Shown piece by piece: positions 22,786-45,839 of a stretch of 64,000 nucleotides of DNA (position 1 is the stretch's first letter; every line of letters begins with the position of its first letter). The stretch comes from an uncultured Candidatus Saccharibacteria bacterium. Lineage in GTDB: Bacteria > Patescibacteriota > Saccharimonadia > Saccharimonadales > CAZWFS01. The notes beneath the pieces were generated by a model. The model saw only the letters and a program-made list of their open reading frames with translations. It ran no database searches and was not told the origin of the DNA. The stretch spans positions 3,313 through 67,312 of the forward strand of contig CAZWFS010000005.1 of the NCBI GenBank assembly GCA_964633325.1, read 5' to 3'. The position numbers were made by a program, and so were the translations under genes.

Positions 22786-23400
22786 TTAGCTTTTTGGGTG
22801 GATAGGGTTGGTAATGACGGCGTCTACTAAGCCGTATTTTTTGGCTTCTTCGGCTGTCATCCAGAGGTCGCGTTCCATGTCATTATGGATTTTTTCTGGC
22901 TTCTGGCCGGTGTTCTTGGCCATAACGTGTTCCAGTAACTTCTTAACTCGCAGGGCTTCCTTTAGGTCGATCTCTTGGTCGGTAACTTTACCCCGCGTGC
23001 CACTGGAGGGCTGGTGAATCATAACCGCGGCATGCGGTAGCAAAAAGCGTTTTCCCTTAGCTCCCGAGCTAAGCAAAAAAGCAGCTGCCGAGGCTTGAAT
23101 GCCTATACCCACGGTCTGTACATCGCTCTTCACGTACTGCATGGTGTCATAAATGGCCAAAGCGTCATACACGCTGCCACCAGGACTGTTTATGTATAAG
23201 TAAATATCTTTTGTCGAACTATCGTTGTCCAGGAAGAGTAACTGAGCCACAACCAGGTTAGCGGTATGCTCGTTAACATCATTGCCTAGGAAGATAATCC
23301 GGTCCTTAAGCAGCCGGCTATAAATATCATAGGCCCGCTCAACCCGCCCATCATTCTCTATAACAGTAGGTATTAATACCTGACTCTTCAAATCACCCAT
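22786..23400 (-). CDS. clpP: ATP-dependent Clp protease proteolytic subunit
   Basis: [14 protein letters not shown] (catalytic Ser) and MIHQPSSG (His). I moved the start to Met9 (23400), because the track start would lie inside the promoter/CIRCE. Confidence 0.95.
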
Positions 23401-23505: not shown

Positions 23506-23535
23506 AGCTAGTTGTAGCTATAGCTACTACTAGCT
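23506..23535. repeat. 30-bp near-perfect palindrome
   Basis: AGCTAGTTGTAGCTA|TAGCTACTACTAGCT: 14 of 15 mirrored positions pair, with one T:T mismatch. The core GTAGCTATAGCTAC is perfect. Confidence 0.8.
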
Positions 23536-23614: not shown

Positions 23615-24013
23615 TCAAGAGTGCGTGTCTCTGTCTTTCCTTCTTGAAAAGGTCGTGTCCAGTTGGACCTCTTGCGAGCGCTGGGATCGTCGTAATCGAA
23701 ATAGAATTATTCTTTCTAGCCATGGGTATGCACTAATTCGAGCTTGTTTTTCTCTTATCTGCCCTGGTGTCATTTCATGTCTTAACATTGCGTTAGCAAG
23801 TCGTTGAGAAAGTTCCCATTTACGATCACCTGCCGCATAATCAAACCAAGTTCTCATTTCTGCTGTTCGTCCGGGCAAAGTATCAGATAGTTCTAATCCG
23901 AATGAGGTAGGCGGCAGAGGCGTGTCAAAAGGAATAGTAGGAGCTACGTCAGTAGGCGGACGCATTAGCTCCTTATATAAAGTCAGATCTATTTCTGGGT
24001 GACTATCTGTCAT
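23615..24013 (-). CDS. Hypothetical 132-aa protein between tig and clpP
   Basis: Intact ORF with a TATAAT-like element upstream. No family recognised. Confidence 0.45.
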   Translation of the reverse strand: MTDSHPEIDLTLYKELMRPPTDVAPTIPFDTPLPPTSFGLELSDTLPGRTAEMRTWFDYAAGDRKWELSQRLANAMLRHEMTPGQIREKQARISAYPWLERIILFRLRRSQRSQEVQLDTTFSRRKDRDTHS

Positions 24014-38973: not shown

Positions 38974-40323
38974 TCAATTTTTTTCTAAGAATTTATTCAG
39001 AGCGGTGCGTAAGTCTGGCACACCGGTTAAGAGCGACATCTTTTTTCCAGTTTTAACTGATGGTCCGATCGCGCTTGTAAAGCCAAGTTTTTTAGCTTCG
39101 GCGATCCTTTTTTCCACGTTTGGCACATGGCGTATTTCGCCAGATAAACCGACTTCTCCGAAAACTACGGAGTTACTTTTAAGTTTTAATCCTTTAGCTG
39201 CGGAGCCAATTGCTATGGCTACCGCCAGGTCGGCTGCCGGCTCACTTATCTTCACACCTCCTACTATATTCACATATATATCCATGTCCGCCAGATTAAG
39301 CTTAGTACGCCTTTCCAGGACCGCCACCAGTAGATTTACGCGGTTTAAATCTATGCCCACGGCAGTCCGTTTGGGATATCCGTAACTAGTTTTGTTAACT
39401 AAAGCCTGTACCTCCACTAGTAATGGCCGACTGCCCTCCATGGTTGCCAGCACCACCGATCCATCGGTAATTTGCCGTTCGGCGAGTAATGATGCTGAAG
39501 GATTGTCAACCGATTTTAGTCCTGTCGCCGTCATCTCGAAGATGCCCGCTTCATTCGTAGATCCAAAGCGGTTTTTGGCAGCTCGCAATATTTTGAACCC
39601 ACTATAGCGGTCGCCTTCCATATTCAGTACGACATCGACCACATGTTCCAATATTTTTGGTCCGGCAATTGAACCTTCTTTAGTAACATGGCCAACGAGA
39701 AAGATAGCCGTATCTGCTTGCTTGGCCGCCTGGGTCAAAACCTGTGTACTATTGGTAATCTGAGTTATACTCCCCGGTGCTGAGCTGATACCGCTACAGA
39801 CAACAGTCTGAATAGAATCAACAATGACAAGCTGAAACTTGCCGCTTTTTATTGTGGCGACTATATCATCCGTAACCGTGCTAGTCGCTAACTGTAAGTC
39901 GATGCGGTTAGTTCCTAGCCTTTCCGCCCGAAGGCCGATTTGATGCGCTGACTCCTCGCCACTTACGTAAAGTACGGAATGTTTAGCCGCTACCGCATAG
40001 GCTAGCTGTAGCAATAGGGTACTCTTGCCAATACCGGGCTGGCCAGCGATCAAGTTAACGCTGCCCGCGACAATACCACCACCCAAAACCTCATCAATTT
40101 CGGAAATACCCGTTAATAAACGCGTTTGGTCAGTCCTTACCCATACAGAAACATTTTCGGTTGGCAAAACCTTGCCGCCAGCGTGTCTTGAGGGGGTTTG
40201 GTCTAATATGACCTCTTCCTGTATTGTGTTCCACTCGCCACAAGTATTACAGCGCCCTGTCCAGTTGCTAGCCACTGCCCCACAGCTGCCACACACGAAT
40301 CTCACTGGTTGTTTTCTTGCCAT
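38974..40323 (-). CDS. radA: DNA repair protein RadA/Sms
   Basis: Zinc ribbon CGSCG...CNTCGEW, Walker A GQPGIGKST, KNRFG motif and a Lon-like C-terminal domain. Confidence 0.96.
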   Translation of the reverse strand: MARKQPVRFVCGSCGAVASNWTGRCNTCGEWNTIQEEVILDQTPSRHAGGKVLPTENVSVWVRTDQTRLLTGISEIDEVLGGGIVAGSVNLIAGQPGIGKSTLLLQLAYAVAAKHSVLYVSGEESAHQIGLRAERLGTNRIDLQLATSTVTDDIVATIKSGKFQLVIVDSIQTVVCSGISSAPGSITQITNSTQVLTQAAKQADTAIFLVGHVTKEGSIAGPKILEHVVDVVLNMEGDRYSGFKILRAAKNRFGSTNEAGIFEMTATGLKSVDNPSASLLAERQITDGSVVLATMEGSRPLLVEVQALVNKTSYGYPKRTAVGIDLNRVNLLVAVLERRTKLNLADMDIYVNIVGGVKISEPAADLAVAIAIGSAAKGLKLKSNSVVFGEVGLSGEIRHVPNVEKRIAEAKKLGFTSAIGPSVKTGKKMSLLTGVPDLRTALNKFLEKN

Positions 40324-41546: not shown

Positions 41547-44033
41547 CTACTCCTGGTCCGTAGAGTAAACCAAATCTTTATTCTTAGCCGCAACTTGCAA
41601 TATATCGCCCTTACCAAAGTGGTTGTCTAGTAACTCCAATGCAACATGGTCTTCGATAGTATCTTGTAGTAACCTGCGCATAGGTCTCACCCCGTTATGG
41701 GCGTCGTAGCCGTTCTCCAGCAAATGCTGCTTTGCGGAGCTGCTAACCTCCAAACCAAGCCCATGCTTCACTAAACGCTGGCGCAGCTCGTTGATCTGTA
41801 GGTCTAATATCTTTAATACGTCTTTTTTGGTGAGGGCCCTGAATACAATGACCTTGTCTATTCGGTTAAGCAGCTCCGGTCGCATCATACGTTTCAGCTC
41901 CTCCAGGACCTTATCCTTATTGGCAGAGTGAAGTGCATCCAAATCCTTAAGCTCGCCGGGCCTTACAGCATGAAAACCGAAGTTGGCCTCCTTTTGTAAT
42001 TTCTCGGCACCAATATTGCTGGTCATGATGATTATAGTGTTGGTAAAATCAACCTTTCTGCCTTTGGTATCAGTAAGGACTCCGTCTTCTAATATTTGGA
42101 GTAACATATTAAATACTTCCGGATGTGCCTTTTCTATCTCATCGAATAGTACCAGACTGTATGGCTGTCGTCGGACCCTATCCGTAAGCTGACCGCCATC
42201 ATCATAGCCCACATATCCGGCCGGAGCGCCAATTAAACGCGACACAGTATGTCTTTCACTCATTTCGCTCATATCGATCTTGATAAGCGCATCACTGCTG
42301 CCAAAGAATTCCCGAGCAAGCACACGTGCTAATTCCGTTTTTCCCACCCCAGTAGGTCCTAGAAATATAAATGAACCTATAGGCCTTTGTCCGCCACTGA
42401 CACCGGAACGATTACGACGAACTGCCTTAGCAACGGCTGCCACAGATTCGCTCTGACCTATGACGTACTTACCAAGCTGTTTTTCTAAATTGAGCAGGTA
42501 TTTGGCCTCGGATCGTATAACTTTGCGGACAGGTACACCTGTCATGCGGGCGACTACTTCTGCGACATCATTACTAGTCATCACTAGTTTATCTGCTGGT
42601 TTGATTTCAGCCTGAAGCTTCTTTAGATTTTCACTGATCTGGCTAGCCTTGGTTTTCATCAGCGCGGCTTTTTCATAATTTTCGGTCTCAACGGCATCTT
42701 CAATCCGTGAGTTCATGAGTTTTAACTCGTTTTGAAGCTTGCGTACTTCGGGTGGTGTCTTACCCCTATCAACCCTTAGATGCGCGGCCGTCTCGTCCAT
42801 AAGATCGATGGCCTTATCCGGCATAAATCGGTCATTTAAATAGCGTTTTGCCAAGTTAACAGTGTCTTCGAGCACGTCGTCACCGACTTTTACCCCATGG
42901 AATGCTTCATAGTGCTTACGTAAGCCTTTAAGTATAGCCAGAGTCTCGGTAATTGTAGCCTCTGGCACCTGAATAGGTTGGAATCTTCTTTCTAGCGCGG
43001 CATCTTTTTCTATATGCTTTGTGTATTCGGTGGTGGTGGTCGCGCCAATGACTTGAATTTTACCGCGCGCCAAAGCTGGCTTAAGAATATTTCCGGCGTC
43101 CATAGCACCTTCCGCCGCGCCGGCGCCTACTATCAGGTGTAGCTCATCAATGAAGACTATAGACTTTTTATCGTTTTCCAGCTCAGTTATGACTTTCTTA
43201 AGCCGTTCTTCGAACTCACCTCGATATTTTGTGCCCGCAATCATACCAGCCAAATCAAGCATGATGATCCGCTTATCAAGCAAGCTGTCTGGTACATCCT
43301 CAGAAACTATTCGTTGCGCCAGCCCCTCTACGATTGCCGTTTTTCCAACTCCGGGTTCTCCAATCAGAACAGCATTATTCTTGGTACGTCGGTTAAGTAT
43401 AGTTACTACACGTCTTATCTGAGCTTCACGTCCAACTACCGGATCCAGCTTTCCTTCCCTAGCTTGTCCTGTTATGTCTGTGCCAAAGAAATCCAAGGCA
43501 GTTTTACGCTGCTTCTTGGCGCTCTTACGTCGATTTTCGGCCGTCGGCTCGCCACTGGTATCCTCATATTGCTGACGATTTAAAAATTGCTCCAGTTCAG
43601 TAATTAATTGATCTACGTCGACATTCATGTCCCTGAGTAAAATGGTTGCCCGGGCATTCTTTTGGCTAAGGATACTATAAAGTATGTGCTCTGTTCCGCA
43701 GAATTCTTGATTGAAGTCTTGAGCCACGTCGTACGCCATCTTCAACGTCAGCTTAGCTGTCTCACTTAAACCTTTATCGCCAAGATTGATAACTAATGTC
43801 TTAGGTGTAAGATTAAGTGCCAAGCGCGCCCGGTCAAGCGTAACACCTACGCCCTCAAGCAACTTTGCGCCCATACTACCTTCTTGGGCCAACACACCTA
43901 ATAGCAGATGCTCGGTACCGATGTACGCGCTTCCGAGCCCGCGAGCAATTGCGTTAGCTTGTTTCAGCCCCTGCAAAGCATTATCAGTCAGATGGTTTAA
44001 GAACTCTTGAAAATCAGGTGAATTTGGGATCAT
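41547..44033 (-). CDS. clpC: ATP-dependent Clp protease ATP-binding subunit ClpC
   Basis: Double Clp_N repeat, Walker A GEPGVGKT and GPTGVGKT, and a short UVR-like linker ([15 protein letters not shown]). Start moved to ATG 44033, 8 nt after a GGGGTGG SD. Confidence 0.92.
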
Positions 44034-44083
44034 AAAATGTTCCACCCCTTGTCTAGCGATTATCGTAAATGTACGCTACATCC

Positions 44084-44111
44084 ATTGTACCATTTAGCAC
44101 TCAAGCGTCAA
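44084..44111 (-). promoter_or_regulatory. clpC promoter
   Basis: Gene strand reads TTGACG (44111..44106), a 16-nt spacer, then TACAAT (44089..44084). A leader of about 45 nt with an SD follows. Confidence 0.5.
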
Positions 44112-44120
44112 GAGTGCCAA
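44094..44120. promoter_or_regulatory. CIRCE-type inverted repeat (HrcA operator) at clpC
   Basis: TTAGCACTC-AAGCGTCAA-GAGTGCCAA. The arms are identical to the clpP copy and match 17/18 of the consensus. It covers the -35 and the spacer. Confidence 0.6.
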
Positions 44121-44260
44121 GACAAAATACTAGCTTGTACCGGGGAAGAAAATAGCCAGACAGGCTGCTTTAGAGTGGCCAAGTAATAGGCCGAGTTGGC
44201 AGGCCTGACCCGAGTCAAGATTGCTATTGGACGAAAAATGAGTGACTTGAGTTAGAGCGC

Positions 44261-44602
44261 TTAGTCGCTGTCCATCATACTAAGAAAGCCCCGCACACGA
44301 CCAGATCGAAAATGTATACCCACCACATTTACTTCACTACCCCCAAGCATTACCTGGCCCACGAAATTAACTGGCCTTTCATCGTAAGATCCAGGTTGTT
44401 CTGCAGCCCTAGCTTGACTAACGGTGAGGTCGAGTGTAGTAAGGCCTTCAAAAAAATCTCTCGACGGATAAGGGCCACCATCACCAGTATAGGCTGGTGC
44501 GACCCGTAACCAACCTTCACCTGCTTGTCCATTATCATCTTCTACTAATGGAACATGACCACGAATTATTACCATTTCGCTCACGGAATTATTATCTGCC
44601 AT
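44261..44602 (-). CDS. Hypothetical 113-aa protein between nusA and clpC
   Basis: Intact ORF with a Gly/Val-rich composition. No family recognised. Confidence 0.4.
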   Translation of the reverse strand: MADNNSVSEMVIIRGHVPLVEDDNGQAGEGWLRVAPAYTGDGGPYPSRDFFEGLTTLDLTVSQARAAEQPGSYDERPVNFVGQVMLGGSEVNVVGIHFRSGRVRGFLSMMDSD

Positions 44603-44654
44603 AATGCTTATATATTATACACTATTATCAATATGAGTCAAAGTTTAGCCGAAA

Positions 44655-45839
44655 CTATTTAACTTTCTGCTCACTCCCCTCCGTACCGTGCTCCTCAATT
44701 GCTTCAAGTAAACTACTCTCTAGTTCAGACTTCTTCTTCAACTTTTGTACGACTGGCTTGGTATTTTCTTCCGGTGGCTTCTGTTCCTCGGTAGAGGCTG
44801 CCACATCGGCAGTGATATCCAGATCATAACCAGTCAATTTGCTTGCTAATCTGACGTTCTGTCCGCTTTTGCCTATGGCTATGCTCTGCTGATCATCTGG
44901 CACAATGACCGTAGCTTTTTTATTTTTTTCATCCAAAATTACCTTAGTAACCTTGGTAGGGCTAAGCGCGTTTGTGATATATGTTACTGGATCTTCAGCC
45001 CAGACTACAATGTCTATTTTTTCTTGCTCACCAATCTCGCCCATAACAGCATTCACACGGGTGCCGTGCCCACCAACAAAAGTTCCCACTGGGTCAACTC
45101 CCGGTACTGTGCTACTAACCGCGATTTTGCTGCGCACACCAGCTTCGCGGGCAATATTTTTGATTTCCACGGCTCCATTTTCCATCTCAGGTACTTCTCC
45201 ACGGAACAACCACTCTACAAATTCCGTATTGCCACGCGAGACAACCAGCTGCGGGCCGCGGAAACCGCGTTCTACGTCTTTTAAGAAAACCTTTAGCCTT
45301 TGCCCCGGGTAGTAACGCTCCCCTTGAATTTGTTCACTGGCTGGCATAATACCCTGCGCCTTCCCCAGCTCAACCCGTATCAGGCGGCCTTCTACGCGAG
45401 CAACTATGCCATTAATAACAGTACCAATCTTATCCTCATATTCAGCCATTACAATTTCCCGCTCAGCTTCTCGCAGTCTTTGCAAAATAACTTGCTTTGC
45501 AGTTTGCGCCGCAACACGTCCGAAATCTTTTACTTTTTCATGAACCTCTATTACATCTCCAACTTTAGCGTCTTTCTTCATGACACTGGCACTGTTTACA
45601 CTGATTTCAAACCGTTCGTCCTCCACCTTTTGTACGACATCTTTGCTCACAAAGGCATCTACATCACCGGTGTTTAGATTCATAGTAATTCGCACTTCTT
45701 GTTCCCGATCCCCGTAGTCACGCCTATAGGCTGCTGCTAGCGCTTGTTCAACCACCTCCTGCACTACTTCCTCAGGCAAGTTTTTTTCCTCGGCTATTGT
45801 TTTAATGGCCAAGGCTAGTTGTTTCATATCCAGTTCCAT
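44655..45839 (-). CDS. nusA: Transcription termination/antitermination factor NusA
   Basis: N-terminal domain, S1 domain and tandem KH domains (IGKSGQNVRLASKLTG). SD GGAG lies 7 nt upstream. Confidence 0.95.
   Translation of the reverse strand: MELDMKQLALAIKTIAEEKNLPEEVVQEVVEQALAAAYRRDYGDREQEVRITMNLNTGDVDAFVSKDVVQKVEDERFEISVNSASVMKKDAKVGDVIEVHEKVKDFGRVAAQTAKQVILQRLREAEREIVMAEYEDKIGTVINGIVARVEGRLIRVELGKAQGIMPASEQIQGERYYPGQRLKVFLKDVERGFRGPQLVVSRGNTEFVEWLFRGEVPEMENGAVEIKNIAREAGVRSKIAVSSTVPGVDPVGTFVGGHGTRVNAVMGEIGEQEKIDIVVWAEDPVTYITNALSPTKVTKVILDEKNKKATVIVPDDQQSIAIGKSGQNVRLASKLTGYDLDITADVAASTEEQKPPEENTKPVVQKLKKKSELESSLLEAIEEHGTEGSEQKVK

Follow-up and report, generated by a model that had tools for sequence, protein, structure and literature searches.

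A putative CIRCE operator embedded in the clpC promoter of a Candidatus Saccharibacteria genome, with a sister site at clpP

The DNA analysed here, called the window throughout, is a stretch of 64 kb with a G+C content of 42-48%, in which clpC and clpP both lie on the minus strand (Table 1). The clpC product is a double-AAA+ protein in which two Walker A motifs are present and residues 685-687 form an FGF loop, and it is 77-84% identical to the ClpC proteins of 80 species-representative genomes, nearly all of which are labelled Candidatus Saccharibacteria or Saccharimonadales. Its ATG, at 44033, is preceded by the Shine-Dalgarno sequence AAGGGGTGG (44050-44042). Downstream of clpC follow an ORF with coiled-coil character and radA. 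The 324-aa coiled-coil ORF, which has weak Pfam matches, is kept between clpC and radA in 86 related loci at ~50-57% identity, and the gene order nusA-clpC-coiled-coil ORF-radA is conserved, with the synteny 3' of clpC kept in 83-86 loci. Neither a terminator-like site nor a strong promoter-like site was found between clpC and the 324-aa ORF. The two downstream genes may share a transcript with clpC, a prediction that we regard as uncertain.

Upstream of clpC the window differs from its relatives. In most of these, nusA ends ~50 nt 5' of the clpC operator described below, whereas the window has an extra ~530 bp (44121-44654) holding a 113-aa ORF on the minus strand (44261-44602). This ORF is absent from those relatives, lacks homologues in a set of about 200 related loci and matches no Pfam or NCBIfam model. 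A near-consensus promoter-like site, TTGACT-16-TATAAT (44641-44614), stands before it. The ~530 bp upstream of the clpC operator look like a lineage-specific insertion.

Table 1. Features of the clpC and clpP regions, in window coordinates.
Feature	Position	Strand	Remark
clpC-type Hsp100/Clp ATPase gene, 828 aa	41547-44033	-	predicted target of the operator
Coiled-coil ORF, 324 aa	40422-41396	-	between clpC and radA
radA	38974-40323	-	identified by Pfam
Small stem-loop TAGCG-N15-CGCTA	44054-44078	-	start of the predicted clpC leader, just 5' of the Shine-Dalgarno sequence
TG-extended -10, TGG then TACAAT	44084-44092	-	hexamer 44089-44084, 16 nt from the -35
CIRCE promoter-proximal arm GAGTGCTAA	44094-44102	-	perfect match, within the -35/-10 spacer
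CIRCE spacer TTGACGCTT, 9 nt	44103-44111	-	first six bases are the clpC -35 hexamer
CIRCE promoter-distal arm TTGGCACTC	44112-44120	-	one mismatch to TTAGCACTC, position 3
clpP gene	22786-23400	-	ATG at 23400
clpP CIRCE TTGGCACTC-TTGACTTCC-GAGTGCTAA	23418-23444	-	on the clpP promoter

The plus strand at 44094-44120 reads TTAGCACTCAAGCGTCAAGAGTGCCAA, which in gene sense (minus strand) is TTGGCACTC-TTGACGCTT-GAGTGCTAA, an inverted repeat with a 9-9-9 layout. The same element was returned by a repeat search as two arms of 9 nt each that are 89% complementary and 9 nt apart. When the 64 kb were searched with the CIRCE consensus TTAGCACTC-N9-GAGTGCTAA, allowing up to 3 mismatches, two sites only were found, one at clpC and one at clpP, with 20,676 bp between them. 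Both deviate from the consensus at one position, the same in the two, and the chance expectation is 0.06 matches; of 100 shuffles of the window, one had at least two matches within 3 mismatches. At clpC, 17 of 18 arm positions agree with CIRCE and the spacer is exactly 9 nt long. A preliminary description of this DNA had claimed a second CIRCE over the clpC promoter, ~20 kb away from the one at clpP, with identical arms, the same deviation and the same orientation relative to the gene. The consensus search and the repeat search agree on the element, and the remainder of the description is equally accurate, as the mismatch falls at the same position in each copy and both copies lie 5' of minus-strand genes with the G-deviant arm on the gene-distal side.

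An independent promoter scan placed the clpC -35 hexamer, TTGACG, at 44111-44106 and, after a spacer of 16 nt, the -10 hexamer TACAAT with its TG extension at 44089-44084. The -35 hexamer is therefore made up of the first six bases of the operator spacer, and this is the same pair of hexamers that had been read from the letters earlier. The operator overlaps the -35 and the promoter spacer, and the promoter lies 50 nt 5' of the clpC ATG. At clpP, the -35 TTGACT (23435-23430) is separated by 17 nt from the -10 TATGAT (23412-23407), and in gene orientation TTGAC occupies spacer positions 1-5 at both window sites. Only 6 nt separate the clpP -10 from the ATG (TATGAT-cgattt-ATG), so that the clpP mRNA is probably leaderless. 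Gaps of 6-10 nt from -10 to ATG with no Shine-Dalgarno sequence are found at the window clpP, at clpC in the related loci L025, L030, L046 and L075, and at clpP in L212, which suggests leaderless mRNAs at several clp promoters. A separate 30-bp near-perfect palindrome, AGCTAGTTGTAGCTATAGCTACTACTAGCT, with arms that are 94% complementary, lies at 23506-23535, ~60 nt 5' of the clpP operator and between clpP and a small unannotated ORF (23615-24013).

The comparison of clpC covered 80 species-level loci, 1.52 Mb in all, and three of these come without upstream DNA and stand outside the counts. In 76 loci there is a single CIRCE each (up to 3 mismatches), invariably just 5' of clpC, and a further locus (L016) carries it with 4 mismatches, which gives 77 of the 77 loci having upstream DNA. 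Elsewhere in the 1.52 Mb, no further CIRCE site was found. The 76 clpC sites were collected in a position table, in which arm positions 2, 4-9, 19, 20, 22-24 and 26 never vary and 75 sites (99%) have G at position 21. Transitions account for the variation at the outer arm positions 1, 3, 25 and 27: A and G alternate at position 3 (G in 11/76), and C is found at position 25 in 22/76. The weight that the preliminary description had laid on the shared C-for-T deviation was thus an over-reading: the position varies among relatives, and the deviation is not special in itself because it falls at one of the four freely varying outer positions. Within the spacer, positions 1-5 are TTGAC in 61 of the 76 sites and begin with TTG in 71, while positions 6-9 and the 20 nt upstream show background conservation (30-46%). 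A TA...T hexamer resembling a -10 follows the right arm at a spacing of 16-18 nt in 67/76 relatives. Judged from these positions, the clpC site bears a textbook phylogenetic footprint, that of a protein-binding palindrome joined with a promoter.

For clpP, six orthologues were picked by protein similarity alone, blind to the DNA motif, and CIRCE with 0-2 mismatches stands 5' of the gene in all six. Two of them share contigs with CIRCE-bearing clpC loci, namely JANWIN010000004.1 (L212 for clpP, L030 for clpC) and CAZDQS010000003.1 (L213 and L033, respectively). The cassette pattern scan described below contributed at least 10 further clpP loci, with products 62-80% identical to the window ClpP, and no clpP gene without CIRCE was found in any locus examined. 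Co-conservation upstream of both orthologues had been named beforehand as the check on the operators, and it is complete for clpC (77/77) and for clpP (6/6). The earlier argument that the two operators reflect selection rather than chance gains from the same counts, together with arm cores that stay invariant while the flanks drift. The view that both palindromes arose by chance or neutrally from a promoter sequence they share (TTGAC and flanking bases), and have no part in regulation, could draw on the one shuffle in 100 with two or more matches. Against this stand the single mismatch at each window site, the recurrence at every clpC and clpP locus compared despite randomised flanks, and zero off-target sites in 1.52 Mb; on the strength of the conservation data we exclude chance, leaving it a practically negligible probability.

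Operators within one genome can be compared in three cases. On CAZDQS010000003.1, the operators of clpC (L033 225-251) and clpP (L213 935-961) are identical 27-mers, spacer included. The two operators of the window have both arm variants in common, spacer positions 6-9 being the only ones that differ, and on JANWIN010000004.1 (L030, L212) the arm variants differ between clpC and clpP. Arm variants may tend to agree within a genome, whether through concerted evolution or through co-adaptation to the HrcA of that genome, but three genomes are a small basis for such a judgement. Five contigs in the clpC set (L031, L035, L043, L060 and L078) were deposited as Chlamydiae, Nevskiaceae and Limnocylindria/Limnocylindrales, and their ClpC proteins are ~79-80% identical to that of the window. 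With their Saccharibacteria-type operator, these are probably mis-binned or mislabelled MAG contigs.

The reading that we favour, with a probability of roughly 0.85 on the sequence evidence, is that the clpC site is a functional HrcA operator of the CIRCE type, fused with a sigma-70-type clpC promoter and repressing clpC. The 27-bp palindrome would extend from about -46 to -20 relative to the predicted transcription start. Because the -35 lies within the spacer and the proximal arm fills the interval between -35 and -10, an HrcA dimer bound to both arms would block sigma-factor access to the -35 and exclude RNA polymerase. In this way clpC would be kept off without stress, and the conserved ORF and radA perhaps with it. 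Under proteotoxic stress HrcA activity would be lost, and clpC would be derepressed along with clpP, hrcA-grpE-dnaK, dnaJ and probably groES/EL. In other bacteria, HrcA is inactivated by unfolded proteins that titrate GroEL, or directly by heat. Titration of GroEL is the textbook model of this inactivation (PMC7737663, PMC3842655). HrcA binding, promoter occlusion, the inducing signal and the heat inducibility of clpC are steps that we infer for the present locus from its sequence.

The palindrome could also function mainly in RNA and not as a DNA operator, forming a hairpin by which transcripts reading through from upstream are terminated or destabilised. Transcription entering from the promoter-like site at 44641-44614 could let the RNA fold into a 9-bp stem with a 9-nt loop, and no terminator-like site was found in the 140 nt that separate the palindrome from the ORF upstream. 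However, no T-run follows the stem, and the element lies 5' of the predicted clpC start. Across 76 species the arm cores do not vary, and compensatory arm changes are absent, as expected of protein recognition, and in most relatives the insertion with the 113-aa ORF is absent and nusA ends shortly upstream. Rfam covariance models gave no match in 43900-44700, on either strand, at E up to 1. The CIRCE of B. subtilis has been described as an RNA-destabilising element; the clpC operator, lying 5' of the predicted start, would not be part of the clpC mRNA and therefore would have no such role. Taken together, we consider an RNA hairpin very improbable.

Even with an HrcA site at clpC, that site might be just one input, while a second control, by the leader stem-loop or some other factor, dominates the expression of the gene. 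The small stem-loop at the start of the predicted leader does recur in many relatives. Its motif, TAGCGA-N10-16-TCGCTA, is found at the same leader position in 22/77 relatives vs 1.6 expected, and other relatives have different but pairing sequences there. The 5-bp helix is paired in 84% of cases vs 28-46% when it is slid, and there are 9 double changes. Dual control of clp genes is also known in Firmicutes, for example by CtsR and HrcA at clpP of Streptococcus salivarius. Nevertheless, the window stem-loop alone is weak (-4.2 kcal/mol, z = 0), its spacing is variable and it leaves the ribosome-binding site uncovered; RNAalifold found no consensus structure in 42 clpC leaders. Furthermore, there is no CtsR box at the clp promoters and no second protein-binding motif of fixed geometry. 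A dominant second control is hence unlikely. The leader stem-loop is probably an accessory feature and not part of the operator, and it may serve as a 5'-terminal mRNA stabiliser.

Known regulators other than HrcA were considered as well. The CtsR box (A/G)GTCAAA-NAN-(A/G)GTCAAA, searched with 3 mismatches, gave 10 weak matches in 64 kb vs 6.7 expected, which is chance level, and none in the clpC or clpP promoter regions; CtsR control is unsupported because the clp promoters carry no such boxes. The operator spacer and right arm together spell CTTGAGT, which we take to be a HAIR half-site of HspR. This candidate was rejected, since spacer positions 6-9 are unconserved and there is no second half-site. 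A sigma-54 reading of TTGGCAC was rejected too, as no TTGC stands at the required spacing and most relatives have A and not G.

The repressor itself has to be sought in the lineage. The 64-kb window contains no hrcA, and the HrcA look-ups placed the gene in the assemblies DATKGW01 and CAYYQZ01, both outside the set of the clpC loci. We therefore infer by extrapolation from the lineage that the source genome carries hrcA. Proteins of 226-245 aa encoded directly 3' of the operator/promoter cassette match the Pfam HrcA model PF01628 with 56-79 bits (cut-off 22.2), and two of three such proteins tested also match the HrcA winged helix, PF03444, with 27 bits (cut-off 21). Their N-terminus aligns to residues 16-99 of Thermotoga maritima HrcA, 1STZ (E = 5e-19, 2e-22), and their close homologues are named as Candidatus Saccharibacteria proteins by NCBI. 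The genes stand in the neighbourhoods lepA-adk-hrcA-grpE-small ORF-dnaK-dnaJ or gmk-hrcA-grpE. Each of the three HrcA look-ups shows hrcA behind a CIRCE that has 0-1 mismatch and carries TTGAC in its spacer. From the HrcA matches and the CIRCE before hrcA, the lineage appears to have a cognate, autoregulated HrcA whose canonical targets share their cassette with clpC and clpP. The leader of hrcA holds a second, degenerate CIRCE with 3 mismatches, 3' of the promoter-embedded one (L201 9973-9999; L219 1473-1499), and hrcA therefore appears to have tandem operators. Such an arrangement has been reported for hrcA of Lactobacillus plantarum (PMC3842655).

These HrcA proteins, from Saccharibacteria and other CPR lineages, are short (~235 aa, range 226-245, vs 338 aa in T. 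maritima 1STZ; L081, L084, L122, L168 and others; P0001-P0120; L201 10001-10708). They cover only positions ~82-215 of the 215-position PF01628 model, so that ~80-100 residues of canonical HrcA are missing. Dimerisation, GroEL dependence and even DNA specificity could differ from those of characterised HrcAs. An AlphaFold model of the short HrcA was unusable (pLDDT 41.5), the alignment being shallow with all rows at least 69% identical.

The reduced length of the lineage HrcA, and a 64-kb window without hrcA, would fit a different reading, in which the clpC and clpP elements are operators for a non-HrcA regulator whose target is this inverted repeat or one like it, with HrcA acting on the chaperone genes only. 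However, the clpC and clpP sites are indistinguishable from the sites at hrcA, dnaK and dnaJ of this lineage in arms, spacer length and promoter register, and their arms are those of the textbook HrcA operator TTAGCACTC-N9-GAGTGCTAA (PMC3842655). A second regulator of identical specificity would be unparsimonious because hrcA itself carries the same element, and we judge this reading to be quite improbable. The HrcA-controlled Clp regulon put forward in the preliminary description thereby finds comparative support, in the conserved sites and in a cognate, CIRCE-preceded HrcA in Saccharibacteria. That the Clp protease genes of this lineage share a repressor with the classical chaperone genes is a prediction supported by these comparisons.

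Metagenomes were scanned for the combination of operator and -35 with the pattern TTRGCACTC-TTGAC-N4-GAGTGCYAA, which returned at least 121 cassette sites in at least 120 loci. The genes directly 3' of the cassette include at least 37 hrcA (226-245 aa when full-length), at least 20 dnaK, at least 9 clpC and at least 10 clpP. Also found there were at least 2 clpB, at least 4 groES, at least 1 groEL, at least 3 hsp20 and at least 1 dnaJ, as well as at least 4 genes for zinc-ribbon proteins on high-GC contigs and a few singletons. Among the matches listed, nearly every target of the cassette is a gene of protein quality control. Viral contigs were scanned too and contained no copy of the cassette. 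The zinc-ribbon proteins are ~100-110 aa long (PF09723, tested for L085), and their contigs (L085, L088, L121 and L153) are probably not from CPR because their G+C content is 62-69%. It is possible that the zinc-ribbon protein gene is an unrecognised member of the HrcA regulon in another phylum.

A wider reading, which we advance tentatively and rate at a little under even odds, is that Saccharibacteria, and apparently much of Patescibacteria/CPR, would place the whole cytoplasmic proteostasis network under one truncated HrcA of ~235 aa. In this joint proposal the network would comprise hrcA-grpE-dnaK-dnaJ, groES/EL, clpB and hsp20 together with ClpC/ClpP, and the repressor would work on a standardised operator-in-promoter cassette whose CIRCE spacer is the -35 box. 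If the missing HrcA segment serves dimerisation or GroEL-dependent activation, stress sensing would differ in this lineage and might, for example, involve an intrinsic thermosensor. If the proposal is true, no simpler heat-shock circuit than this minimal-HrcA one would be known in bacteria.

Members of the Saccharibacteria, like other CPR bacteria, live as ultra-small epibionts that are for the most part uncultivated, and to our knowledge their gene regulation is almost unstudied. A full-text literature search returned no paper linking HrcA or CIRCE to Saccharibacteria or CPR. The clpC and clpP sites yield a testable prediction for the phylum, namely that one repressor controls both the chaperones and the Clp degradation machine. 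The invariant cassette of arms and embedded -35 is also a marker with which promoters and stress genes can be annotated in CPR metagenome bins, and it could be used as a stress-inducible promoter for the few cultivable TM7 strains.

Among known systems, the CtsR class III regulon of Firmicutes (ctsR-mcsA-mcsB-clpC-radA, clpP, clpE) shares with the present locus the clpC and clpP targets, the clpC-radA neighbourhood and a stress-relieved repression of Clp genes, predicted in our case. The operator differs, CtsR boxes being tandem direct repeats of a heptad, which were not found at the clp promoters of the window, and ctsR, mcsA and mcsB do not stand 5' of the window clpC, which is preceded by nusA instead. 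HrcA would fill the role that CtsR holds in Firmicutes. The clpP gene of Streptococcus salivarius is reportedly under dual control by CtsR and HrcA with the involvement of CIRCE, as Chastanet and Msadek are said to have described in 2003 (J Bacteriol 185:683, cited in PMC3842655). A CIRCE at clpP is common to both cases, but there CtsR acts too, whereas here clpC is included and HrcA appears to be the sole recognisable input because no CtsR box lies near clpP or clpC.

Mycoplasma pneumoniae is similar in combining a small genome with a single HrcA over chaperones and ATP-dependent proteases or disaggregases. Its HrcA regulon includes lon, clpB, dnaK, dnaJ and groES/EL, with a CIRCE 5' of lon (PMC7737663), and so parallels the single regulon proposed here for proteostasis as a whole. 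The proteolytic branch differs, as Mycoplasma uses Lon and ClpB and its regulon is listed without ClpP or ClpC (PMC7737663), while here clpC and clpP bear the operator. The two cases also belong to different phyla, the window being of patescibacterial origin.

With the class I dnaK/groE system of B. subtilis, the paradigm of HrcA-CIRCE regulation, the present sites share the operator consensus (PMC3842655) and the PF01628/PF03444 repressor family. As in class I systems, hrcA heads a predicted autoregulated hrcA-grpE-dnaK-dnaJ cluster in Saccharibacteria. In contrast, the targets here include clpC and clpP, neither of which belongs to class I in B. subtilis, and the repressor of the lineage has ~235 aa vs ~340 aa in the B. 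subtilis paradigm. The CIRCE elements of B. subtilis lie 3' of the transcription start, whereas here the -35 sits in the spacer and one arm lies between -35 and -10. The operator itself is an ordinary CIRCE, and what is unusual compared with B. subtilis is the targets, the strict fusion of operator and promoter, and the short HrcA. Collectively, our results do not overturn the known picture of HrcA, and instead extend a well-known system to new targets and a new lineage.
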